Shown one piece after another: positions 41,879 to 63,824 of a DNA stretch of 64,000 nucleotides (the first letter of the stretch is position 1; every line of letters starts with the position of its first letter). Origin of the DNA: Solirubrobacteraceae bacterium (GTDB lineage Bacteria; Actinomycetota; Thermoleophilia; Solirubrobacterales; Solirubrobacteraceae); contig DATHPE010000008.1 of NCBI GenBank assembly GCA_035484215.1, positions 27,326 through 91,325 on the forward strand, read 5' to 3'. The position numbers and the translations under genes are program-made. Under the pieces are notes generated by a model that ran no database searches, had not been told where the DNA came from, and saw nothing but the letters and a program-made list of their open reading frames with translations.

Positions 41879-41947
41879 GAGGCACTGGCCGAGCGCTGGC
41901 GACCGTATCGCGCGTACGCTGTCCAGCATCTGTGGGCGACAAGATGA
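41879..41947 (+). pseudogene. alkA: 3' remnant of DNA-3-methyladenine glycosylase II
   Basis: Reads EALAERWRPYRAYAVQHLWATR*, matching the AlkA C-terminal W.P.R.YA...LW motif; no start codon; TGA overlaps the next ATG. Confidence 0.72.
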
Positions 41948-42756
41948 CCACGCACGCTGAAAAGGCCACTCGCTTCCTCGAGCTCCACCGTCAGGAGCGT
42001 CCGCTGCTGCTGGCCAACGCCTGGGACGTCGGCTCGGCCAGGCTGCTGGCTTCAGTCGGCTATCAGGCTCTAGCGACCACCAGCAGCGGCTACGCCGCGA
42101 GCCTCGGCCGGCTCGACTACGGGGTCACCCGCGATGAGGCGCTCGCACATGCCGCCGCGCTCGTCGCCGCGACCGACGTGCCCGTCTCGGCGGACCTCGA
42201 GGAGTGCTTCGCCGTGGACTCCGCTGGCGTCGCCGAGACCGTGCGTCTTGCGCTTGACGTCGGCCTCGCCGGCTGCTCGGTCGAGGACTGGAACCCGCGC
42301 GGGCAACGCCTGTACGACATCGATGAGGCCGCCGAGCGCGTCGCGGCGGCAGCCGAGGCCGCGCACGCCGGTCCCGTGCACCTCGTGCTCACCGCGCGCG
42401 CCGAGAACCACCTGCGTGGGAACCCCGACGTGCAGGACACGATCTCGCGCCTGCTCGCCTATCAGCAGGCCGGCGCTGACGTGCTGTACGCCCCCGCGCT
42501 CGATCGACCCGAGGACCTGCGCGAGCTGCTCGCCGCGGTCGAGTTGCCGGTCAACGTACTCGCGCGCGCCGCCACGCCGCCGGTGGCGGAGCTCGCGGCG
42601 TTGGGGGTCAAGCGCATCTCCGTCGGCGGTGGGTTCGCGTTCGCGGCTTACGGGGCAGCGGTCAAGGTCGCGAGCGAGCTGCTCGGCCAGGGGACCTACG
42701 GCTTCACGGAGCTGTCGGCTGCAGGTGCGAAGGCTGTGCGCGCGGCGTTCGACTGA
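41944..42756 (+). CDS. Isocitrate lyase / PEP mutase family protein
   Basis: NAWDVGSA, LATTSSG, CSVED, LTARAE, AGADVLY. Confidence 0.88.
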   Translation: MTTHAEKATRFLELHRQERPLLLANAWDVGSARLLASVGYQALATTSSGYAASLGRLDYGVTRDEALAHAAALVAATDVPVSADLEECFAVDSAGVAETVRLALDVGLAGCSVEDWNPRGQRLYDIDEAAERVAAAAEAAHAGPVHLVLTARAENHLRGNPDVQDTISRLLAYQQAGADVLYAPALDRPEDLRELLAAVELPVNVLARAATPPVAELAALGVKRISVGGGFAFAAYGAAVKVASELLGQGTYGFTELSAAGAKAVRAAFD

Positions 42757-43050
42757 GCTAGTGAGTTCGAGCCACCGGGCGTTGAACGGCGTCGACCGGA
42801 TCAGGCTGCTGTCAGACGCTCGCAGGCGCACCAGACGTCGCTCGTTCGGGCGGAGTTGGCAAAGACGCCGGCAGGGCATTTCATCGGGGTTAGACGTAGG
42901 TACCTATACCCGAGCGACGGTACCGGCCGCGTTGACGGCTAACGTTTCTCGATGCTGCGATCTGCCATCAGCCGAAAAGGCTCGGTTTTTGCGTGTATGG
43001 GCACCCCGCTTGCTCCCAACAACCGCGAAGATGCATAGGAAGGCACGGCC

Positions 43051-44151
43051 GTGACCACGCTGACCACCCGCACGCACCAGTTTCGCTATAGCGTCAGTCT
43101 CGACGAGATCGAGGCGCGCCTTCTTAGCTGGTCAGCGGACAGCGACGGCGAAGCGGAGACGGTGCTTGATCTCTCCGAGTGCCGCCACGTGGACCCAGGT
43201 GCCGGCATGCGTCTGACGAATGCCATGCGGCGGTGGTCGGCAGGTCGCTTGGTTGTGTGGGTGCCTCCGGACGTTGATCTGCAGGGCAGCGACTGGTTTC
43301 GGCTATTCACGCGGTCGGGGCTCGGTTGGGCGATGGCCGCGCACGCTTGTGCTGTGTACTCCGGCAGCCGGGACATCGCTGAGGACATCAGGGCGTACTA
43401 CGAGGCGACATCATCATCACACGCTGTCAACTGCGTGATGTTCCGAGACATAGAGGACGGCGCGCTCGTCCCAACCCAGGATCGTTTCGTCAGCACGATG
43501 CTTCAGGCGATACGGCACCACTTGCAGCACGCCTATGCTTCCATCGAAGCCGGTGATCGTCGCTTGCTTGCTCGTTTGGCGCACGAGGCAGTCACGAACG
43601 TGGTCGACCATGCGTTTGCGGCACCGTGGCACGACGCCGGGACGCTACTGAGCTACCTCTCCGTCCGTTGGTATCGCACAATAAGCGCTAAGAACGACGA
43701 GCTGGGCGGCCTGCGCAGCTATATCTCAGCGCACCGCGAGGGCCTAGCGCCAACGGACACCATTGCCGGATGGATGGAGATCGTTGTGGCAGATGACGGC
43801 GTGGGCATCGCTGCCCGCCATGCCCTTATCGATGAAACGACGATGTACTCGGGATCCATCTCCGCCGAGGATGAGGCACTGCGCGAAGCACTGCGTAGCA
43901 GCTCCACAGTCAAGCTCCGCGCACTCGACGCCCAGCTCCGCGGGGAGCCAGGCTACGGCACGTCCATCATGCTTGAGTGCCTAAAGGGCATCAAGGCATA
44001 CGCTGCTCTGCGCACCGGCCGACGACTGGTGGAGTTCGATCCGTGGCGACACGAGCGATTCGAACTCCATGAGTCTGACCTCGGCTGGCTTCCTGGTACA
44101 GCGATGCAGGTCCTATTGCCCGTGCTGGACCCTCAGCTGCGCATCACGTAG
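43051..44151 (+). CDS. Uncharacterised STAS-like plus GHKL (histidine kinase-like ATPase) protein
   Basis: VLDLSECRHVDP (STAS-like); HEAVTNVVDHA (N box), ADDGVGI (G1), GEPGYG (G2); AGGAAGG RBS. Confidence 0.7.
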   Translation: MTTLTTRTHQFRYSVSLDEIEARLLSWSADSDGEAETVLDLSECRHVDPGAGMRLTNAMRRWSAGRLVVWVPPDVDLQGSDWFRLFTRSGLGWAMAAHACAVYSGSRDIAEDIRAYYEATSSSHAVNCVMFRDIEDGALVPTQDRFVSTMLQAIRHHLQHAYASIEAGDRRLLARLAHEAVTNVVDHAFAAPWHDAGTLLSYLSVRWYRTISAKNDELGGLRSYISAHREGLAPTDTIAGWMEIVVADDGVGIAARHALIDETTMYSGSISAEDEALREALRSSSTVKLRALDAQLRGEPGYGTSIMLECLKGIKAYAALRTGRRLVEFDPWRHERFELHESDLGWLPGTAMQVLLPVLDPQLRIT

Positions 44152-44167
44152 CCATAGCGACTATTCC

Positions 44168-46327
44168 GTGTCTCTGCGGTGTCTCAGCTTCCAACATTAC
44201 GAGCACCTGTTCGACGAGGAGAGCATCGCGACCGGCCCCGAGCCATTTCCAGGCCATCGCGTCATGCTGTTCGATCCGCGAGTGGAGCGCGGTAGCCGGT
44301 CGATCGGCGAGCGCTGGCGTCAACTCGATGCGGCGAAGCGAACGGCAGACCTGATCATCGTCCGAGGCAGCACCAAGCACTTCGCGGTCAGTGTCGAGGA
44401 GGACACACTGCTACGCGACACGGTTGCCGAGGTGCCATTGATCACGTTGACGGGCAGTTGGAATGCCGCCAAGCGAGCCCCACAGCTCGGAGCCCCCAGC
44501 TGGGCGTCCGCGAATGACATCGTGCTTGACCTAGATCAGCTGCGAACCTTCGAACTCCTTACGCTGATTCTTGAGAGCAAGGCTGTTTACCGAGAGCTTG
44601 GTTGCCACTTCCGCCTGCCATCGTCCAGGTTCCACGCGGCGGCGTTTATTCGCCTCGCCGATGCGCTTGATGACCATACTGACTTGGTCCGCGTCGCAGA
44701 CTGGGTTCTGCCAAGACTCGATGACGGGACGGCGCTGCTCGGCGACAACGGGTCTCTGATCGGCCTGCTAAGCGTGGTAAGCCGCGAGGCGCTGGTCCGC
44801 TTCGACTGGGAAGTGCCCGTGGCAACACTCAACGAGTACCCATCCGATTCGGAGATGATTCGCTCATTCATCGATGGCTTCCGTGCGCAGGACTGGGAGC
44901 GTTTGCTGTTCCTGATCACGGTGAGTTCGAGTGGATCGATCGCCTCGCGTGTCAGCGCACTGGATGATGTCGACATTGATGTTGTGGTGCTCTGCGGCAC
45001 CGATCCGCCTGGTGAGGGGCCCGCAACTTGCTTCACCCGTCATTGTGTTGAGCGTTGGGATGCCGGCTCCGACCAGTCTTGCCCTCAGTGCACAAGTCTT
45101 CACTGCCTCGTGGTCGACCCGCAGACCTATGAGGTGCGTACTCTTCTTTACGGAAATCAGCGGAGCGTCGATATTGACGAGGCTGGTCGATGTGCCCCGT
45201 TCTGGGAGGCAGCAGACCGCCAAGACGCCGTCTCCCTGCATGCACAAGTGCCCACCGCCGATGGGAACCCCGCCGGAAGCCGCCATCACGCCGTTGCCCT
45301 CGATGTCCCCCGGCTCCTTGAAGACCCGTGGTTCCGAGATCAATGCCTTGAGGTGCTGCGCCGTCAGCCGTGCCCCGATCTCGTGCTAATCCCACGACAT
45401 AGCGCAGGCGCACCGTTGGCCGAGCTCGTCTGCGAGGCTCACCATCTCGAGCAGTCCGCCGTCCTCCACGTGTCCATCGGCGACTTTGAGCCGAAACTCA
45501 TCGAAAGGTTGCGAACCTGCGAACGCGTTCTTGTTGCCGATGACGTCGTGATCACCGCAGAGACCATGGTGGCGCTGCGCCGTCGCGTCTACGACGCGAC
45601 GAGCGGCAGCGGTGACATCGAGGTGTGGGGCTTTACGGCGGTGATGCGCCCACCATCCAAGCTCGAGCTCAACCACGTCCGTCGTCCCTTTCGCGGTCCT
45701 GCCGCCGACGGCGGCTCCGAGGTCCGCCTCGCGACAGGCTTCGAGGTCTTCCTGCCCGCTCCCGGGAGCCAGGCGTGCCCGTGGTGCGCCGAGCGCGACC
45801 TGCTCAACAATCGGCTCGCCGGTCTTGCAGGACGGGCACGGCAGGTCGCGCAAGCTCGGCTTACGCGCCTGAGGGCCAGCGGCGGCCTTGAGCCACCGCT
45901 CTTGCTTGTGGGCGACGCCGGGACAACGCGGACCGACGGCTCCTACTTCGGCGCTCTGTACCCCAAGGCTGCCTTTGCGGCTGCCACTGCGGTAGCGCAA
46001 CGCCAGAAGGACACCTTTCTGCGCGATCGCCAAGTCAACGAACTGTGTGTTTTCAATGTCCCCCTTGCACTTGATGCCTTCTTCGACACGATCGTGCTGG
46101 CCGGGCTGCTGCGCACATTCGATCGCCGTGACTTGCGAGACGTCACGCACGACGCTGAGGTAGACCGCGCACTCGGCGAGTACCAAATGCGGCCTGGTAC
46201 GCTCATTGAGGCCGGGCTCGCTGCAGTCAACGGCAAGGTGCCACCCGAGTCCGTCCGGCACCGCCTTGAGAACAGTGATCTCGGCGAGGTCGCTGAGCTA
46301 CTACTCGCCTTGCTCGGCAGCGAATAG
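44168..46327 (+). CDS. Uncharacterised protein with two tandem PyrE-like phosphoribosyltransferase folds; start uncertain
   Basis: CHFRLPS.RFH..FI and LLFLITVSSSGS..SCPQC, then RHH..LD, VLVADDVVITAET..ACPWC. Confidence 0.6.
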   Translation: MSLRCLSFQHYEHLFDEESIATGPEPFPGHRVMLFDPRVERGSRSIGERWRQLDAAKRTADLIIVRGSTKHFAVSVEEDTLLRDTVAEVPLITLTGSWNAAKRAPQLGAPSWASANDIVLDLDQLRTFELLTLILESKAVYRELGCHFRLPSSRFHAAAFIRLADALDDHTDLVRVADWVLPRLDDGTALLGDNGSLIGLLSVVSREALVRFDWEVPVATLNEYPSDSEMIRSFIDGFRAQDWERLLFLITVSSSGSIASRVSALDDVDIDVVVLCGTDPPGEGPATCFTRHCVERWDAGSDQSCPQCTSLHCLVVDPQTYEVRTLLYGNQRSVDIDEAGRCAPFWEAADRQDAVSLHAQVPTADGNPAGSRHHAVALDVPRLLEDPWFRDQCLEVLRRQPCPDLVLIPRHSAGAPLAELVCEAHHLEQSAVLHVSIGDFEPKLIERLRTCERVLVADDVVITAETMVALRRRVYDATSGSGDIEVWGFTAVMRPPSKLELNHVRRPFRGPAADGGSEVRLATGFEVFLPAPGSQACPWCAERDLLNNRLAGLAGRARQVAQARLTRLRASGGLEPPLLLVGDAGTTRTDGSYFGALYPKAAFAAATAVAQRQKDTFLRDRQVNELCVFNVPLALDAFFDTIVLAGLLRTFDRRDLRDVTHDAEVDRALGEYQMRPGTLIEAGLAAVNGKVPPESVRHRLENSDLGEVAELLLALLGSE

Positions 46328-47896
46328 CCGGCGGCGACTCTCAGACCGGATCTCGGAGAGAATCCGCTCTAGACGTGGCTCATCGGTCATGTCGACGTAC
46401 TTCATGGCGTCGCCGACAGCGGGATGCACCTCGCGAATCAGGCGGTGCATCTCATGTGCAATCGCTCGGTAGCTCGGGTGCCCCTCGCGACCGGACCGCA
46501 ACTCGACTACGTGCATAGCCTCTCGCGCGTTGAGGTCGAGCACGTATCGAACGCGATAAGCCAAGCACAGGGCATAAGGCGCATGGAGAGAGTCACCAGC
46601 CTCAACAAGCGCCCGCCAAGCTTCGCGCGAGCGTGTCACGGCCGCACGATAGTCATCGGTGAGACCGGCGGCGGAGATCTCCTCGGGCACGGAGGCACCC
46701 AGGTGCGGACTTAGCGTCTGCCACTGGACCGTGAGCATGCGGTGGCGCTGGAGATCGCGGAAGGCTCCGTAGTCAGAGACGATCTCGAAGCGGTACCGTA
46801 GCGCCTCAAAGCCTCGCCCCGGACGGTGACGCCGGTTCTCGCGGAGACCGATAAGCGCTGCGATGCTGGCGGTCCGCTCGTCGGCACTCAGCTGTGCGAC
46901 GTGCCGGCGGATCTCGTCCCCCCCGACGTCGGAGGCCTCAAACAGCAGCGCTGTCAGCAGCAGCTCTTCGGTCCCGTCGACGTGCACAAGCCGCACGCTT
47001 GGTCCTTCATGGGTGGCGTCGCGATCGAGTCCGAAGCGACTAGCGATGATGCCGGCCTCCTCGGTCCGCCGACGCAGGAACGCTAGCCATCGCCCCCCCC
47101 GGTCTGGGTGCTCGATGCGCGAGACGAAACTGGGCATTGTCGCCTTCATGGCCGAGAGCATCATCTCGCCGTAGTTACGCGCCTCCGGCAGCGGGTGCGC
47201 CAGCAGGTGCAGAATTAGGGACTCGAAGGTTTGGCCGCTAGCGAAGATACCCATGTGGGACAGTGAGGCGGCCGGCAGCAGGCCACGGACAAGATCCAAA
47301 GCCTTGGCCTTTATCGCCCTAGAGTGAGCGGCCGGCGACTCGTCCAGGCCAGCGGGAAACTGCTCTGCGGCCCAGGCAGACACGCGAGGTAGCAATGACG
47401 CATAGGTATCGAACAGGTAATCCATCGCCTGTTCATATGATGGCCCGAGTTCGGAATTGCGGTAGTAACGGTAGCCGCCGTCTGGCACCGGCTGGTCGTA
47501 GGCGATATAGCGTGTCGACTGCTCGAGATACGAACCGAGTCGTGGGCGCTGCAGGATCTTGGTCATGATGTTGGATACCCACTCGCACGCGATGTGGGCC
47601 CCGCCTAGCTGTGCGACGGAATCGTCGCCATAACCTAGGAAGATGCGGTCATAAAGCGCGGACGCGCGCTTTCCCTCCGCGGATACCTTCGGCGCGACGT
47701 CAGACGGGAGGTCGTCAGCGAACTCGTCGAGCAGAAGTCGGCGCAGCGTGCCGGGATAGCGCGAGTACCGCGCGAACAGCGCACCCTTGACCGTCTCGGG
47801 GAGGTTAACGAGCGCAAACACGGGAGCATCGACATCGGTGACGAACTGGGCGAGCGTGGCGCGCTCGGCGTCGGTGAACTCTTCGACGGGAAGCAC
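46301..47896 (-). CDS. thyX: FAD-dependent thymidylate synthase, long tandem-domain form
   Basis: ALFARYSR, YG.DSVAQL, SYLEQSTRY, RGLLPAA, FRDLQRHR, ELRS; overlaps the PRTase gene convergently by 27 bp. Confidence 0.85.
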   Translation of the reverse strand: MLPVEEFTDAERATLAQFVTDVDAPVFALVNLPETVKGALFARYSRYPGTLRRLLLDEFADDLPSDVAPKVSAEGKRASALYDRIFLGYGDDSVAQLGGAHIACEWVSNIMTKILQRPRLGSYLEQSTRYIAYDQPVPDGGYRYYRNSELGPSYEQAMDYLFDTYASLLPRVSAWAAEQFPAGLDESPAAHSRAIKAKALDLVRGLLPAASLSHMGIFASGQTFESLILHLLAHPLPEARNYGEMMLSAMKATMPSFVSRIEHPDRGGRWLAFLRRRTEEAGIIASRFGLDRDATHEGPSVRLVHVDGTEELLLTALLFEASDVGGDEIRRHVAQLSADERTASIAALIGLRENRRHRPGRGFEALRYRFEIVSDYGAFRDLQRHRMLTVQWQTLSPHLGASVPEEISAAGLTDDYRAAVTRSREAWRALVEAGDSLHAPYALCLAYRVRYVLDLNAREAMHVVELRSGREGHPSYRAIAHEMHRLIREVHPAVGDAMKYVDMTDEPRLERILSEIRSESRRRLFAAEQGE

Positions 47897-47951
47897 GTTG
47901 ACATCCTCGCAGGGACCGCTGGTGTAGGTCGGCGTAACCAGCTCGCGGCGC

Positions 47952-49331
47952 TCAGGCCGACCCCACGGCCACCGTATCCAAGCGCGCCGGTGTCCGCCTG
48001 GCGAGCACCCGCACCCGCGTACCCCCGCGCGGCCTGAGCGTCGGCCCTCCCGGCACGGGGCGCGCCGGCGTCGCCGACACCCGCTCGAGCTCGACGCGCG
48101 CGAGCATCTCGCGCAGCACGATCTTCATCTCCAGCAGCGCCAGCGACGCGCCGAGGCAGCGATGCGCGCCGCCGCCGAACGGCAGGAACGAGTAGCCGTC
48201 GGGCTGCTCGTCGAGGAAGCGCTCGGGGCGAAACACGTGCGGCTCTGGATACGTGCGCGGGTCGTGGTGCACGCCGTAGGCGTCGACGAGCACCGCCACG
48301 TCGAACGGGATCGTCCAGGGGCCGATCGTGAACGGCTCGAGCATGTGGCGGGCGCTGGTGATCGGGATCGGCGAGCGGATGCGCAGGATCTCCTTCACGA
48401 GCGCCTCAAGATAGGCGTCGTCGCCCTCGCGCGCCCTGACCATCACGGCGGGATTGTGCACCAGCAGTTCGACCCCCCACGCGGTCGCCGTGGCGGTCGT
48501 CTCGTGGCCGGCCGCGATCAGCGTGATCAGTTCGTCGCGCAGCTGCTCGTCGTTCAAACCGTCTCCGTCCTCGTCGCGTGCGCCGACCATCAGCGCGAGG
48601 ATGTCCTCGCGCTCGCCCAGCAGCGGGTCCGAGCGGGTCGCCGCGATGTGCTCGAACAGGAGCGCGTCGAGTTCGTCTTTCAAGCGCCACGGGCGCCGCG
48701 AGAGCAGGTTCCAGCGGGCGCGGCGCGTGAGCTGCGGCACGAACATCGCGAAGCTGTTCAGCGGCGTGTTCAGCTGGTCGAAGATGTCCCGCAGCCGCCT
48801 GCGCATGGCCACGTCGGAGACCCCCAGCACCGCCTGCAGGATCACGTCGAGCGTCAGCGCCTGGGCGATCGGCTGCACCTTCACCACCTCGCCCGGGCGC
48901 AGGCGATCGAGCTCCGCGGCGGTCAGCCGCTGCATCAGGCGCGCGTAGGACTGCACGCGCTCGCCGTGGAAGGGCGGCAGCAGCATCTTGCGCCGCGTGA
49001 GGTGCTCCGGCGGCTCGAGCATCAGCATCGAGTGCTCGCCCAGGAACGTGCTCAGCAGGTCGTTGCCGTGGCGCTTGCCCAGCGGGTCGCCGGTGTACAG
49101 GCGCCGGATCACATCGCGGTCGCGCGTGAGCACCGCCGTCGGCGAGCTGCCGACGCGGACGGTGAACGTGTCCCCGTAGCGTTCGTGACCGCGATCGCTG
49201 AACTGCGCGTAGCGCCAGATCCGCGCCAGCGCCTGCACGGACCGCGGCATGCGCGGCCCGGGCGGCAGCGAGCTGCTGGCGCCGAGCGGCGCGCCTGCGT
49301 CCTCAGCCGGGGTCGCGAGGGCGGCGGACAT
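47952..49331 (-). CDS. Cytochrome P450
   Basis: AGHETT (I helix), EILR (K helix), FRPERF, FGGGAHRCLG (haem Cys). Confidence 0.95.
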   Translation of the reverse strand: MSAALATPAEDAGAPLGASSSLPPGPRMPRSVQALARIWRYAQFSDRGHERYGDTFTVRVGSSPTAVLTRDRDVIRRLYTGDPLGKRHGNDLLSTFLGEHSMLMLEPPEHLTRRKMLLPPFHGERVQSYARLMQRLTAAELDRLRPGEVVKVQPIAQALTLDVILQAVLGVSDVAMRRRLRDIFDQLNTPLNSFAMFVPQLTRRARWNLLSRRPWRLKDELDALLFEHIAATRSDPLLGEREDILALMVGARDEDGDGLNDEQLRDELITLIAAGHETTATATAWGVELLVHNPAVMVRAREGDDAYLEALVKEILRIRSPIPITSARHMLEPFTIGPWTIPFDVAVLVDAYGVHHDPRTYPEPHVFRPERFLDEQPDGYSFLPFGGGAHRCLGASLALLEMKIVLREMLARVELERVSATPARPVPGGPTLRPRGGTRVRVLARRTPARLDTVAVGSA

Positions 49332-60243: not shown

Positions 60244-62091
60244 TCAGCGGACGGTGACCGACTTCGCGAGGGCACGCGGCTGGTCTATCTCGCGGCCGAG
60301 CGAGACCGCGCAGTGGTAGGCGAACAGCTGGCCAGCCAGCAGCTGGATGATTACGTCTGTAGCGTCCTGCTCGAGGTACGGTAGAGCGATATAGGAGCGA
60401 ATATTAGAGAGATCGTCTGATTCCAGATGTGCGGGGCCGAACGCGAGGACGGGTCCGTTGCGCGCGGCGATCTCGCTCACGTTTGCGAGCGTCGCATGGA
60501 AGCGACGTGGCGCGGCGAGCTTGGATGGGAGAAGCGCGACGGTAAAGAATTCCTCGTCGATCAACGAGATCGTGCCGTGCTTGAAGAATCCGGCTGGTAG
60601 TCCCTCGGCGTGTCGGTAGGAGACCTCCTTGAACTTCAGTGCTGACTCGAGAGCTAGGGGATAGTAGGGGCCGCGCCCGATGAAGAACCAGTGCTCGAAC
60701 TCGCTGTGCAGCTCCGCCAGGGCCTGAATCTGCTCTTTATCATGGCCTAGTACATGCTCGAGCGCGCTGGGTAGTCGCTCGAGCGCGTCACAGATCGTTC
60801 GGTAGCGCTCTGATGGAAGATGTCCGTTGCGTCGGCCGAGCTCGAGCGCTGAGCGGATCAGGATCGTTACCTGGCTGACGATCGACTTCGTGCTGAGCAC
60901 ACATATCTCCGGCCCGGATGCCTGGGGCAGTTGGTGGTGGCTGAGCCGGTCGAGGCTTGAATGGGGTACGTTGGCGAGCGAGGTGAGGAATGCGCCGCGT
61001 TCGACCGCTTCGCGGCCAATCTCGAGCGTGTCGAACGTCTCTCCCGATTGGGAGATGGCAATGGCTGCGTCCTGATCGTCGAATGAGATCCATTCGGCTG
61101 CCTCGTCTGATGGCACGGCATCCGCGCGGATGCCGGCGAGTGTCCGGAAGAAGTACTGACCGAGACGTGCCACGTAGAAGGCGCTCCCAGAGCCGAACAG
61201 CGTTAGGCGGGCGGAGGAGGCGGGAAGGACACCGGCGAGTTGCTCGTCGGTGAGTTCGAGTCCGGCGCGTACCGCTGCAGGTGTTTCGTGCATCTCCTTG
61301 AGCATGTAGTGCGCATAACCTGCCTTGTCGGGAGCTGTGTAGCTTTGATCGAGCAGAACAGCTGCTCGGATGACCTCTGTTGGCTGGTGACCGGCGGCCG
61401 AGAACACCGTCGCGTGACCGGCGGTCGCTCGTACGATGTCCTCGTCGTTGAGGTGGGTCACTTCGCTGCCGATCGCGATGGCTGCCAGCTGGTCTGATGC
61501 GATGAGGGTGTCTTCTGGTCCGGTCGCGAAGAGCAGCGGGCTCTTGTACTTGAACGCATATACGGCGTGCGGATCATCGAGCGTGACACAGACGACCGCG
61601 TACTCGCCCTCGAGTCGCTGCATGACGGACGCGATTGCCGTAGTGATCGAGGTGGCCTCGGGAACCGCTCTTGCGATCAAGTGTGCGATGACCTCTGAGT
61701 CCGTTTCGGAGGCAAGCTGGACGCCTTCGTCTTCTAGCTCGCGGCGTAGCGAGAGATAGTTCTCGATAACCCCGTTGTGAACAATGGCGACCCTCCCGTC
61801 GAATGAGAGGTGAGGGTGTGCGTTCTTCTCGCTGACGCCGCCGTGAGTCGCCCACCGGGTATGGCCGAGCGCCAGATTGGCGGGCGCGAGATTGCTGTGC
61901 GGGCCGTCGCCAAAAATGCCTGTCTGGTGCGCCCTGCTTACGGAGCCGACACCCCTGAGGCGGTCAAGGGTGTCACCACGCACACTGACGAGGCCCCACG
62001 AGTCGTAGCCTCGGTACTCGAGGGTCTCGAGCCCTTCCATTACATCGGTGACGATGTCTCGGGTCGAGGCTCTGCCAATTATTCCGCACAT
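60244..62091 (-). CDS. glmS: Glutamine--fructose-6-phosphate aminotransferase (isomerizing), in an AT-richer block
   Basis: MCGIIG, GHTRWATHG, HNGVIEN, SQSGET, LKFKEVSYRHAEG, QPRALAKSVTV. Confidence 0.93.
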   Translation of the reverse strand: MCGIIGRASTRDIVTDVMEGLETLEYRGYDSWGLVSVRGDTLDRLRGVGSVSRAHQTGIFGDGPHSNLAPANLALGHTRWATHGGVSEKNAHPHLSFDGRVAIVHNGVIENYLSLRRELEDEGVQLASETDSEVIAHLIARAVPEATSITTAIASVMQRLEGEYAVVCVTLDDPHAVYAFKYKSPLLFATGPEDTLIASDQLAAIAIGSEVTHLNDEDIVRATAGHATVFSAAGHQPTEVIRAAVLLDQSYTAPDKAGYAHYMLKEMHETPAAVRAGLELTDEQLAGVLPASSARLTLFGSGSAFYVARLGQYFFRTLAGIRADAVPSDEAAEWISFDDQDAAIAISQSGETFDTLEIGREAVERGAFLTSLANVPHSSLDRLSHHQLPQASGPEICVLSTKSIVSQVTILIRSALELGRRNGHLPSERYRTICDALERLPSALEHVLGHDKEQIQALAELHSEFEHWFFIGRGPYYPLALESALKFKEVSYRHAEGLPAGFFKHGTISLIDEEFFTVALLPSKLAAPRRFHATLANVSEIAARNGPVLAFGPAHLESDDLSNIRSYIALPYLEQDATDVIIQLLAGQLFAYHCAVSLGREIDQPRALAKSVTVR

Positions 62092-62243
62092 ATAGTCGAG
62101 TGGAGTGCCAGCGTCGGCGCTTCATAGGCACCCAGAACGGACCCCGAAGGCCATCCTACCATGGACTCGAACGGGTCATCCAAGGGCCCCGTCCGGCTGA
62201 TGAATGACCCTGAATGGGTCATCTCGCTTGGCTCATGCTGGGA

Positions 62244-63824
62244 TCATGCCGCGTCTGAGCCGATGTGCGCGAGGGCCGCTACCTCGGAGAGCTGTGCGTG
62301 GGGACGTGGCCCCACGCGCTCGGGCGTGGTCGGCGATGTCTGTCGGGCGGCGGCTGTACGTGGCGATCCGCGAAGCCCTAGTTCAGTCCACACTCGACCG
62401 GCGAACACGGGCGTCACAGGGGCAGCTAGCAACGTGACCCCTGTGAGCCACGAACGGGCTTGCGCGGCGCTCGCGAGGTCGACGTCGGGGCGCTCTAGCC
62501 ATCGGTCAAGGATCGTCGTCGCCTCGGTCATCCGAACATGGCTTGGGTCCAGCTGCTCAGCTTGGCGTTCGGTTTGCGTGATCGCCGCGTCGAGCAACGC
62601 TGGGGCGTGCTCGGCGCCCGCGGTGGCGAGCGCGGTTTGGACTCGATTGGCATCAAGGTCCCGCAGCCGATTCACGTGCCGAACCAGCTCGGCCATCGCA
62701 AGTGAGCACAATTCGTCTTCGAGCGGAAGATGGCTGAGGCAGTAGCGGAGCTCGTCGCCGGTGATTGAGCTGCCTTCGATCAGCTCGCTGACCCAGATCC
62801 CATGTCGTTTGCTTGTGGAGCACTTGCTGCCCTCAAAGCTGAGGAGGTGGTTGACGGCGAGCGTGTCGAACCCGCGGTACCGATCAGAGCAGCTCGAGAT
62901 CACATATGGGGCGACGAGCCCTATGCCTGCGTTGTCCTTTCCGAATAGGGCGACGACATGCGTGGCGGAGTCGCGGTCCAGGTCGTTGCCCTCCTCGCCG
63001 CGGATCGCCGTGGAGACCTGGGCACAGTACAAACAGTATGAGTAGAACGTGTTCGTCAGGACACATCGTTCGCTGACCAGTGGGCTCCGAAGGCCCCAAT
63101 CTCCCGGCTGCGACAGTCGCACGCTCGTGCCGGAGCGATGGAGGTGACGGCGGGCGATCGACAAGAACTCGTCATCCAGCCCCGTTTCGGCGAGATTGGC
63201 CAGGATGCTCTCGGTGTTGCCGGGATCGACAAACCAGCTGTCCTCGTGCGTCCATCGCAGTTCGCCCTCATCGAGCCGAGACCGGGGTTCCAGGATCTCC
63301 GCAGGCTGGAATCCGGCGCCGCATCGCACGCACGAGTTGCCCGCCACATCGCTTCCGCACTCCGGACACCGACCGAGGATCCAGACCCCGACGACGTACC
63401 GGCCCGACGCGGCCGAGCGAGGTACGCGCTCAGCTACGAGCTTCGCCGTACCGGCGCGGCGTAGCTCCTCGACGAGCTGCTCGTGGATGTGGCGGTAGGC
63501 ACCCGCGTGATCCGGCGTGAGCGGGTTGATCCAGGCGTCCAGATCAACGTTGAGGTTCGCTAGGTCCTGGGCGATGAGCCCGTGAAGTCGCGTACATGTC
63601 TGCTCTGGCGTCTCGTTGCTTTGCAGTGCCTCCACAAGGATCCAGTTCTCGTATACGTCGGTGCCTGTTATGACTTGTACCTGAGACCCGTCTCTTCGCA
63701 GGCGACGGGCGAGCGCGTCAGCTCGAAGGTAAGGGCCCGCGGCGTGCCCGATGTGCATACGACCGTTCGGGGTCGGCTGCATCGGCAGGAGCAAATGCCG
63801 GCGAGTGGACTCACCGGTGCTCAT
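62244..63824 (-). CDS. Methionyl-tRNA synthetase-like paralog (class I ligase fold, degenerate C-terminus)
   Basis: PTPNGRMHIGHAAGPYL, GTD, CPEC-x8-CVRC knuckle, FGKDN, KCSTSK (KMSKS-like); AAAGGA RBS. Confidence 0.8.
   Translation of the reverse strand: MSTGESTRRHLLLPMQPTPNGRMHIGHAAGPYLRADALARRLRRDGSQVQVITGTDVYENWILVEALQSNETPEQTCTRLHGLIAQDLANLNVDLDAWINPLTPDHAGAYRHIHEQLVEELRRAGTAKLVAERVPRSAASGRYVVGVWILGRCPECGSDVAGNSCVRCGAGFQPAEILEPRSRLDEGELRWTHEDSWFVDPGNTESILANLAETGLDDEFLSIARRHLHRSGTSVRLSQPGDWGLRSPLVSERCVLTNTFYSYCLYCAQVSTAIRGEEGNDLDRDSATHVVALFGKDNAGIGLVAPYVISSCSDRYRGFDTLAVNHLLSFEGSKCSTSKRHGIWVSELIEGSSITGDELRYCLSHLPLEDELCSLAMAELVRHVNRLRDLDANRVQTALATAGAEHAPALLDAAITQTERQAEQLDPSHVRMTEATTILDRWLERPDVDLASAAQARSWLTGVTLLAAPVTPVFAGRVWTELGLRGSPRTAAARQTSPTTPERVGPRPHAQLSEVAALAHIGSDAA

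Follow-up and report, generated by a model that had tools for sequence, protein, structure and literature searches.

A strictly conserved STAS-GHKL and tandem phosphoribosyltransferase-like gene pair with recurrent ThyX linkage, a candidate nucleotide-centred conflict module

The DNA described here is a 64-kb window (GC content 0.69) of contig DATHPE010000008.1, assigned to a Solirubrobacteraceae bacterium; the closest relatives are uncultured Solirubrobacterales, and it is found in soil metagenomes. The window carries an island of three genes, flanked on one side by an isocitrate-lyase-family gene (41932-42756) and on the other by a P450 gene (47952-49331); the coordinates of the island are collected in Table 1. 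Gene 1 joins a STAS-like segment to a GHKL (Bergerat-fold) ATPase or kinase domain. Gene 2, directly downstream, encodes a tandem phosphoribosyltransferase (PRTase)-like protein. The third gene, on the opposite strand, encodes a fused, pseudo-dimeric form of the flavin-dependent thymidylate synthase ThyX. Genes 1 and 2, referred to below as the pair, are the main subject of this work. They are real genes rather than chance open reading frames (ORFs), since each has dozens to hundreds of full-length homologues, a confident AlphaFold2 (AF2) model and RNA contigs in metatranscriptomes. Their start codons fit the full-length homologues.

Exact-match contigs in two soil metatranscriptomes start at 42962 (X4) and 42973 (X3), ahead of gene 1. 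The second of these, covering 42973-44366, comprises the 5′ leader, gene 1 in full, the spacer and 200 nucleotides (nt) from the start of gene 2, and RNA depth over the upstream isocitrate-lyase-family gene is 0. Because the RNA spans the junction between both genes and the upstream gene has no depth, these data support an operon that is transcribed in situ. Contigs from RNA libraries may include some DNA, and the support for the operon is thus short of absolute. A GGAAGG sequence is located 8-13 nt ahead of the GTG of gene 1, and a promoter scan, untuned for Actinobacteria, found no sigma-70 consensus upstream of this gene. Additional RNA contigs lie over thyX (47132-48046). Gene 2 and thyX are convergent, with coding 3′ ends that overlap by 27 nt (46301-46327). 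An intrinsic-terminator scan found no terminator between them, so that the operon and thyX could interfere with one another through antisense or transcriptional effects. The neighbourhoods of the pair were sampled in approximately 28 distinct loci, many of them short; in these, the same overlap measures 24 nt (L001), 4 nt (L004) or 0 nt (L006).

The GC content of the island is 0.61-0.66, compared to approximately 0.70 around it. The GC content at third codon positions (GC3) amounts to 0.730 for gene 1, 0.713 for gene 2 and 0.744 for thyX, and to 0.87-0.95 for ten flanking genes. The three genes are one compositional island that extends past the end of the pair, and this island is a horizontally acquired cassette around the two-gene operon. 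No repeats, direct or inverted, were found to flank it, and neither att-like sites nor tRNA genes were seen around it. A preliminary description of this DNA had placed two co-oriented genes, about 16 nt apart, in an AT-richer island at 43051-46327. Spacing and composition were confirmed and all features are in place, but the island runs on through thyX to 47896.

For gene 1, 39 homologues were found, and the alignment (A2) holds 31 sequences. The boxes of the GHKL superfamily are intact, in the right order and invariant or nearly so among these 31, with invariant residues spaced as E179-x3-N183-x3-H187 in the N box, D248-x-G250-x-G252 in the G1 box and G298-x2-G301-x-G303 in the G2 box. The AF2 model (predicted local distance difference test, pLDDT, 87.6; predicted template modelling score 0.88) has low pLDDT in the ATP-lid region (residues 287-301). 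When this model is compared to the PDB with Foldseek, the top 50 matches are all GHKL proteins (ParE, GyrB, Hsp90 and the His kinase KinB), with weak scores (E 2e-3 to 1.5e-2, template modelling score at most 0.4). Pfam HATPase_c matches 19 of the 31 members at E≤1 (best 7.6e-5), all under the gathering score, the gene of the window reaching 16.6 bits at a cut-off of 26.4. The RsbW-type family HATPase_c_2 matches 16 of the 31, also below the gathering score, and the RsbW models of NCBIfam give E ~0.2. Judged from boxes, profiles and model together, gene 1 represents a divergent branch of the GHKL ATPase superfamily. A HisKA/DHp region or H-box was matched in none of the 31 members, and the model places the STAS-like domain and two helices ahead of the N box. 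Gene 1 does not, therefore, appear to be a two-component histidine kinase.

The STAS assignment is the weakest part of the description of gene 1. Pfam STAS_2 matches seven of the 31 members (best E=0.0025), in each case below threshold, and the alternation of strands and helices in the N-terminal part of the model is compatible with the STAS fold. Conservation in this domain concerns G50, A51, G52 and R54. STAS proteins of the SpoIIAA type carry a phospho-Ser in the sequence DSSG. At the phospho-acceptor position the gene 1 family reads V-[DEQ]-P-G-A-G (VDPGAG), with neither Ser nor Thr. A match to TetR_C_15 (E=8.8e-4, nine of the 31 members) was discounted, being a sub-threshold match to a helical linker without helix-turn-helix.

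Some loci show variations in gene 1 or at its start. The gene 1 homologue of L035 (6063-7823), a locus without ThyX, is 586 amino acids long and has an N-terminal extension of about 220 residues with hydrophobic, membrane-like segments; the start of this ORF is unverified. In L004 (8245-8868, 207 amino acids) and L006 (9708-10004, 98 amino acids) a small ORF overlaps the start of gene 1. The two products are 55% identical, have no Pfam or NCBIfam match and may represent a fourth component in a sub-clade. No comparable ORF is present upstream of gene 1 in the window.

Gene 2 belongs to a large family. An exhaustive profile search recovered 1,030 clusters (50% identity) at E≤1e-3 and 421 at E≤1e-30, ranging from Actinobacteria to Betaproteobacteria, and nearly all proteins have a length of 700-800 amino acids. 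Before this search, a word-indexed one had returned 19 proteins, suggesting a rare family. Conservation was counted over 103 diverse relatives, and the profile used for comparison (A4) is based on 60 sequences. The AF2 model of gene 2 has a pLDDT of 90.3.

The second PRTase-like domain, domain B, is the best defined. When the A4 profile is compared to PDB sequences, 38 of the 39 matches are PRTases. The best one, to adenine phosphoribosyltransferase (APRT; 6fsp/5zgo, E=4e-4), covers positions 369-472 and about 125 residues of APRT, i.e., the whole core. Foldseek gives low-deviation local matches at probability 1.0 to PyrR (1ufr), HGPRT (7san) and APRT (4m0k), with a root-mean-square deviation (rmsd) of 4-7 Å, and viral PRTases are matched at the same probability. 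The loop that would bind phosphoribosyl pyrophosphate (PRPP) has the consensus ILxxDDAxVTGxTL, in which D458 (100/103), D459 (93/103), G464 (92/103) and T466 (89/103) are most conserved; in the loop of the window, VLVADDVVITAET, the G of the consensus is replaced by A. Domain B is thus predicted, from profile and model, to be a type I PRTase fold with a complete PRPP loop. Its divergence is considerable, as the identity of gene 2 to known PRTases is approximately 10-18%, under every curated family threshold. Gene 2 of the window has no Pfam match, Pribosyltran included, and across the 60 diverse members Pribosyltran matches seven at E≤0.01 (best 1e-4).

Domain A is probably a PRTase-like pseudo-enzyme domain with a regulatory role, to judge from its motifs and from the model. 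The A4 profile matches orotate phosphoribosyltransferase (OPRT; 4paw, E=0.0099) at positions 121-168, and the PyrE-like motif, HFRLPSSRFHAAAFIRLADAL in the window, is conserved in the 103 relatives. H147, H156 and W179 are invariant in this domain, and V252 and G256 are at least 90% conserved. Its loop reads LF..SV.SSG and has the acidic pair in no clade. Domains A and B have a like order of strands and helices in the model. In an hhalign comparison of both domains only the CxxC segments align (E=0.008), the rest of the duplication being unrecovered. Each domain is capped by a CPxC motif; in the second one, C537 (102/103), C540 (101/103) and the following E542 (103/103) hardly vary. These motifs probably bind zinc, considering their sequence. 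Throughout the family R66, H147, H156, W179, E542, R649 and E681 are invariant.

Several other matches were set aside. The NMDA receptor amino-terminal domain, LacI and periplasmic binding proteins, found with Foldseek on the whole chain of gene 2, are spurious two-lobe matches with an rmsd >25 Å. The top PDB matches of the shallow A1 and A2 profiles, TALE repeats and a substrate-binding protein, were uninformative; the clean PRTase signal came from the deeper A4 profile.

Table 1. Position of the genes, domains and motifs of the island in the window
Feature	Position	Strand	Remarks
5′ untranslated/promoter region of the operon	42962-43050	+	RNA contig starts; GGAAGG
Gene 1, STAS-like + GHKL Bergerat-fold ATPase/kinase, 366 amino acids	43051-44151	+	GTG start
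Gene 1, N-terminal STAS-like domain, residues 1-135	43051-43455	+	Sub-threshold STAS_2, AF2; boundary approximate
STAS-like motif LDLSECRHVDPGAG	43165-43206	+	No phospho-acceptor Ser
Gene 1, GHKL domain	43540-44151	+	N, G1 and G2 boxes
N box EAVTNVVDHA	43585-43614	+	GHKL
G1 box DDGVG	43792-43806	+	GHKL
G2 box GEPGYG	43942-43959	+	GHKL
Spacer between genes 1 and 2, 16 nt	44152-44167		
Gene 2, tandem PRTase-like protein, 719 amino acids	44168-46327	+	GTG start
Gene 2, N-terminal alpha/beta domain, residues 1-119	44168-44524	+	AF2; D36 and R66 conserved in 103 relatives
Gene 2, PRTase-like domain A, residues 120-300	44525-45067	+	OPRT-like motif, degenerate PRPP loop
Domain A, OPRT-like motif HF.LPSG.HA..F.RLADAL	44600-44671	+	
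Domain A, degenerate PRPP loop LFLITVSSSG	44906-44935	+	Acidic pair absent
First CPxC motif, CPQC, C305/C308	45080-45091	+	Conservation of at least 90% over the 103 relatives
Gene 2, PRTase domain B, residues ~355-530	45230-45757	+	Profile and Foldseek
Domain B, canonical PRPP loop VLVADDVVITAET	45527-45565	+	
Second CPxC motif, CPWC, C537/C540, then invariant E542	45776-45787	+	103 sequences
Gene 2, C-terminal helical domain, residues 541-719	45788-46327	+	All-helical in AF2; R564, R649 and E681 conserved
Gene 3, fused (pseudo-dimeric) ThyX, 531 amino acids	46301-47896	-	
ThyX, RHR motif RHRMLT	46730-46747	-	

The preliminary description had read gene 1 as a STAS-like segment without phospho-Ser, followed by a GHKL domain without a His-phosphotransfer region, and gene 2 as two PyrE-like repeats, each ending in CPxC, of which the first has a degenerate PRPP loop while that of the second is intact. 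These readings are for the most part borne out by the boxes, the profiles and the Foldseek matches described above, the STAS assignment and the fold of domain A being putative. Its remark that the module is not a named system stands as well. Neither gene of the pair is matched by PADLOC at E≤1, NCBIfam gives just hints at E>0.05 and Pfam matches are sub-threshold at most. Relatives of gene 2 are named 'hypothetical protein' wherever they are found in databases. The literature holds no description of an architecture combining a PRTase with GHKL/HATPase, STAS or ThyX, nor of the pair on megaplasmid pHG1 that is mentioned below. Both folds are predicted, the two genes are conserved together and neither matches a described family.

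The association between both genes, another claim of that description that was upheld, is strict. A gene 1 homologue lies immediately 5′ of gene 2 in 17 of the 17 loci recovered with a DNA pattern specific for gene 2. In all loci fetched via gene 2, a gene 1-type protein is encoded directly upstream on the same strand, with a spacing of -19 to +41 nt; in L003 an insertion sequence (IS) element is located between genes 1 and 2. Distant pairs are present in a Gordonia metagenome-assembled genome, on megaplasmid pHG1 of Cupriavidus necator H16, as H16_RS32265/H16_RS35355, and on megaplasmids of Ralstonia solanacearum, where the partners of gene 2 are 376-389 amino acids long. The Gordonia partner has a sub-threshold HATPase_c match (E=0.0012). 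The pHG1 partner aligns weakly (E=0.02) with the gene 1 profile, from end to end and with the GHKL boxes in register. For the Ralstonia partner there is no family match.

The pair is also a self-contained module that moves horizontally, as illustrated by a GC3 well below that of the flanking genes across loci. Values for pair and flanks are 0.52-0.54 and 0.85-0.95 in L015, 0.37 and 0.65-0.68 in L016, and 0.31-0.34 and 0.70-0.83 in L022. In most loci compared, the GC3 of the pair is under that of its flanks, and usually the pair forms a low-GC island of two genes. Patterns of the close family occur in two of 185,579 GTDB species.

ThyX as a recurrent partner was absent from the preliminary description. 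The ThyX of the window matches Pfam Thy1 with 113 bits (1.7e-32; cut-off 24.8) and scores 50.6 with TIGR02170 at a cut-off of 87.9, as expected for the fused form of about 530 amino acids. It has more than 8,000 homologues and is approximately 70% identical to the ordinary 530-residue ThyX of Conexibacter and Solirubrobacteraceae; pair-linked ThyX has no fixed differences from ordinary ThyX. The ordinary thyX genes of the lineage have a GC3 of 0.93-0.95 (L003, L010, L011), whereas that of the window copy is 0.744, a value shared with the pair, so the window thyX arrived together with the pair.

Among the approximately 28 loci, nine have ThyX linked to the pair, directly beside it in all but one, where the distance is four genes. 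The gene is convergent and overlaps or abuts gene 2 in the window, L001/L002, L004 and L006. A canonical ThyX of 256 amino acids is convergent in L012, co-directional copies lie directly downstream in L013 (545 amino acids) and L018 (311 amino acids), and in L029 ThyX is located upstream of gene 1. In L003 it is found four genes from the pair, within the same gene set as that of L013. Three linked types (531, 256 and 311 amino acids) all have the Thy1 domain and are mutually unrelated at the BLAST level. Loci with linked ThyX fall into two separate clades of gene 2, L018 belonging to a different one from L012. As L012 nests among the loci with fused ThyX in the gene 2 tree, one ThyX type appears to have been replaced by another at the same position. 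The recurrence of this partner points to pyrimidine and thymidylate metabolism and opens a regulatory explanation outside defence.

L003 (2122-7586) and L013 (5033-10842) are of special relevance in this respect. Both contain a thymidylate locus with ThyX and ThyA-DHFR, composed of the same gene set in two orders. This set further includes a 278-282-residue protein in which a long N-terminus precedes a dCMP-deaminase domain, a cytidylyltransferase-family gene and a canonical STAS protein (DSTG; TIGR00377, 6e-18), to which L013 adds a HIT protein. The deaminase-like protein matches the anti-phage dCTP deaminase model NF041025 partially (E=7e-16), far below its cut-off. The standalone DSTG STAS protein is seen in these two loci only, and a sigma-70 gene adjoins in L003 only.

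The idea that thyX is a resident housekeeping gene next to which the pair landed by chance, or at a hotspot, was rejected as a full explanation, because the island has a common GC3, the ordinary thyX genes have a GC3 of 0.93-0.95 and three ThyX types are linked in different orientations. A hotspot cannot account for these differing types and orientations. The idea is partially supported by an island without the pair in L009 and by the lack of diagnostic substitutions in linked ThyX. In L009 (8001-17599), a thyX without the pair, 78% identical to that of the window, is followed on its 3′ side by a tyrosine integrase and then by a CBASS-like set (SMODS, ThiF/E1, JAB), DUF6602 and AbiEi/AbiEii. 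In this lineage, defence islands may have the 3′ flank of thyX as a hotspot for their integration. In L006 (13286-14900), on a contig of 4.7 Mb, the thyX beside the intact pair is split into ORFs of 409 and 118 amino acids, which reflects either a pseudogene or an assembly frameshift.

A defence neighbourhood is seen at some loci, but many others are metabolic. On pHG1 the order is Avs1b, Avs1c (AVAST), a protein with AbiJ_NTD3, the pair and IS66. In L014 a SMODS CD-NTase (CBASS) is encoded two genes downstream of the pair. L006 has AbiEi/AbiEii, a transposase, an integrase and a group II intron reverse transcriptase near the pair; in L005 an integrase abuts gene 2 and is followed by a C5 methyltransferase with SmaI and an AbiEii-like gene. 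Other loci contain an integrase and DUF6079 (L008), three Fic genes (L001), PIN/VapB (L003) or, in Ralstonia, IS21 with unknown low-GC ORFs. The 47 neighbours in the short metagenomic loci include genes for a C5 methyltransferase, restriction-modification, HNH, PIN and a DEAD helicase. Known defence genes are present within 10 kb in approximately seven of about 28 loci, and integrases or IS elements in approximately six; these are raw counts.

A PHP-domain protein of about 270 amino acids is found near the pair in L021 (1272-2081), L024 (3-566), L027 (4251-5087) and L035 (11962-12789), all of them from related genomes, and adjoins the pair in a single host context. PHP is the partner of the PRTase in Ophion (bioRxiv 10.1101/2025.09.30.679545). 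Near the pair, the GC3 of the PHP protein is host-like and in L035 it adjoins ispD/ispF; it is probably host context.

PRTase effectors occur in ShosTA, PsyrTA, type III retrons and Ophion (bioRxiv 10.1101/2025.09.30.679545; PMC11961720). Judged by its architecture, the module would work most like these systems, and it resembles the RsbW/RsbV switches as well, while it appears to be a member of none. Like ShosTA, PsyrTA, the type III-A3 retrons (Retron-Eco11) and Ophion with its OpnC, the pair encodes a presumed effector of type I PRTase fold together with its regulatory partner, in a mobile operon of small size that is often located in defence islands. However, genes 1 and 2 have no PADLOC match at E≤1 to the effectors of these systems. 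The putative effector of the pair has a pseudo-PRTase and a PRTase, each followed by CPxC, between additional N- and C-terminal domains, and its partner is a STAS-GHKL protein instead of a DprA-like antitoxin, a reverse transcriptase with its non-coding RNA, or a radical-SAM protein with PHP. Linkage to ThyX is specific for this module among the PRTase-effector systems compared.

Gene 1 shares with RsbW/SpoIIAB and RsbV/SpoIIAA the combination of a STAS or STAS-like domain with a GHKL domain that lacks a DHp/His domain. Unlike in that switch, both are fused in one chain, the STAS part has no phosphorylatable Ser, and the conserved partner is a PRTase-fold protein instead of a sigma factor, none of which is conserved with the pair. 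Gene 2 is similar to PyrR and PurR in having a PRTase fold, which in those proteins reads PRPP or nucleotides, and in its linkage to pyrimidine metabolism. PyrR is a single RNA-binding domain of approximately 180 residues, whereas gene 2 is far longer, tandem, provided with CPxC motifs and paired with an ATPase. As to PyrE and Apt, the motif of domain A resembles the OPRT N-terminus and the core and loop of domain B match APRT, but gene 2 is fused and duplicated in a larger chain outside a biosynthetic or salvage context. Finally, the dCTP deaminase, dGTPase and DefensePredictor thymidylate-synthase systems are, as the pair would be, conflict modules with a deoxynucleotide or thymidylate enzyme. 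For one E. coli defence system, with a different gene set, a thymidylate-synthase domain has recently been validated (PMC13092281). These nucleotide-pool systems lack STAS-GHKL and tandem PRTase proteins; ThyX is of the ordinary kind here and present in about one third of the loci. Altogether, the lack of profile matches, the absence of cognate partners, the fused Ser-less STAS-GHKL protein and the lack of a conserved sigma factor speak against membership in the PRTase-effector systems and the RsbW/RsbV switches.

The following mechanism can be proposed. Gene 2 would be the effector, which may bind PRPP or a pyrimidine (deoxy)nucleotide and, once released, may make or destroy a nucleotide by phosphoribosyl transfer or by the reverse reaction. 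Gene 1 would be the switch, with ATP bound by its GHKL domain. By analogy with RsbW/SpoIIAB, it would either hold gene 2 inactive, ATP turnover relieving this sequestration, or phosphorylate gene 2. In the latter case the SSSG loop of domain A, which is invariant, is a candidate phospho-acceptor, as it has the same strand-loop-helix placement as the DSSG loop of STAS proteins. The STAS-like domain of gene 1, without an acceptor Ser, could serve as a docking or ligand-sensing element. Capture of ThyX by the pair in the clade of the window would mark the branch from deoxyuridine monophosphate (dUMP) to deoxythymidine monophosphate (dTMP) as the affected pathway; ThyX would keep self-damage low by acting as a buffer or a bypass, or else would be the guarded component. 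In short, gene 2 may be a kinase- or ATPase-gated effector that modifies or depletes nucleotides, as the preliminary description had also proposed.

The explanation that we prefer, at odds that seem to us about even, is that genes 1 and 2 form a nucleotide-centred conflict module with a role in defence, abortive infection or addiction. The evidence for an anti-phage function, which the preliminary description had considered possible, is circumstantial. Several observations weigh against it: within 5 kb of the island the window has ordinary metabolic neighbour genes, the 47 genes next to the pair in the short metagenomic loci are for the most part unrelated metabolic ones, PADLOC has no match, and no relative of the pair was found among the 50,697 records of a phage database. 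In the clade of the window the PRPP loop reads TAET, not TGxT. The strictly invariant residues of gene 2 lie mostly outside the canonical PRPP loop, which leaves room for a composite site. The best structural matches of domain B include PyrR, and pure sensors and regulators such as PyrR and PurR have the PRTase fold as well. The pairs of L003 and L013 have a host-like GC3, lie within a thymidylate locus and look more metabolic or regulatory. The last two points favour an accessory regulator of thymidylate and pyrimidine metabolism instead of immunity, which we regard as the main rival, although on the whole rather doubtful. In that case PRPP or (d)UMP/dTMP would be read by both PRTase-fold domains of gene 2, a sensor of the PyrR/PurR kind, and gene 1 would be a partner-switching ATPase or kinase, the two together tuning the activity or expression of ThyX or ThyA. 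This fits the linkage to three ThyX types, the complete thymidylate loci of L003 and L013, the phosphorylatable DSTG STAS protein in the latter two, a natural substrate for an RsbW-like kinase, and the absence of fixed differences between pair-adjacent and ordinary ThyX. It does not fit the approximately two thirds of loci without a thymidylate gene nearby, the typical occurrence of the pair as a low-GC two-gene insertion in unrelated contexts beside integrases, IS elements and defence genes, or the patchy distribution of the close family in GTDB, which is unlike that of a housekeeping regulator. Moreover, no DNA- or RNA-binding domain was detected in gene 2, and in L006 thyX is split while the pair is intact.

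The pair might be a toxin-antitoxin-like addiction module that mainly stabilises mobile islands, here one that supplies ThyX, without a dedicated anti-phage role; gene 2 would then encode a toxin that poisons nucleotides, and gene 1 an antidote that depends on ATP. The compact, tightly spaced operon, its horizontal acquisition, its place at the edges of integrase-bearing elements, the PRTase toxins of ShosTA and PsyrTA and the travelling of pair and thyX as one compositional unit in the window are consistent with this. Multi-domain regulatory proteins of 366 and 719 amino acids are however more typical of sensor-effector immunity, which makes pure addiction improbable; in addition, it overlaps with the conflict module that we prefer, as many toxin-antitoxin systems also defend against phages. 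A more specific, three-part form of immunity is likewise unlikely, if a shade less so: the STAS-GHKL protein would sense infection and unleash the tandem PRTase, which would collapse or poison the pyrimidine/dTMP branch and cause a programmed 'thymineless' arrest of phage DNA synthesis, and the co-transferred ThyX would be either guarded bait for phage factors or a bypass that allows a leaky effector to be tolerated in carriers without infection. In a refinement of this reading, the RsbW-like kinase would phosphorylate the SSSG pseudo-PRPP loop, and a PRTase loop would have been reused as a STAS-like phospho-switch. A duplicated housekeeping target beside biosynthetic enzymes is a known signature of self-resistance. 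The thyX of the window was acquired with the pair, and the exchange of one ThyX type for another in L012 suggests that ThyX activity itself has been selected for. The island could encode a minimal biosynthesis of a nucleotide analogue, in which a base analogue and PRPP yield a nucleoside monophosphate analogue directed against thymidylate synthesis of competitors, with ThyX for self-resistance or extra dosage. Since the island has no exporter, tailoring enzymes or precursor-supply genes, most loci lack ThyX and linked ThyX has no resistance-like substitutions, this is very unlikely. Least credible of all is a DNA-uptake or processing factor resembling ComF, binding DNA rather than free nucleotides. 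In ComFC proteins a PRTase domain is accompanied by a Cys-rich zinc finger, and gene 2 has a PRTase fold with two invariant CPxC motifs, but its domains are tandem, the CPxC motifs follow rather than precede each domain, no competence genes are present in the neighbourhoods and there is no ComF match in Pfam or NCBIfam.

If the pair is an immune or addiction module, approximately 1,000 clusters (50% identity) would be added to the repertoire of nucleotide-centred defence. The combination of a partner-switch-type ATPase with a pseudo-enzyme/enzyme PRTase tandem is an architecture that was previously unseen. Repeated, independent capture of ThyX in three non-homologous forms is a rare pointer from comparative genomics to the pathway concerned, testable via the dUMP, dTMP and PRPP pools. 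Humans lack ThyX, which is an antibacterial target, and a natural system that manipulates or guards this enzyme would have wider interest. If, on the other hand, the pair regulates thymidylate synthesis, it would represent a new PRTase-fold sensor coupled to a STAS/GHKL switch. The pairs of C. necator H16, beside AVAST on pHG1, and of Ralstonia free experiments from the uncultured soil Solirubrobacterales.

Apart from the island, the window contains another low-GC stretch (60244-63824, GC content 0.63) with two genes on the minus strand. They encode a GlmS-like glutamine amidotransferase of 615 amino acids and a 526-residue protein similar to class I aminoacyl-tRNA synthetases, MetRS-like and with a HIGH-type motif. 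This stretch may be part of a biosynthetic cluster.

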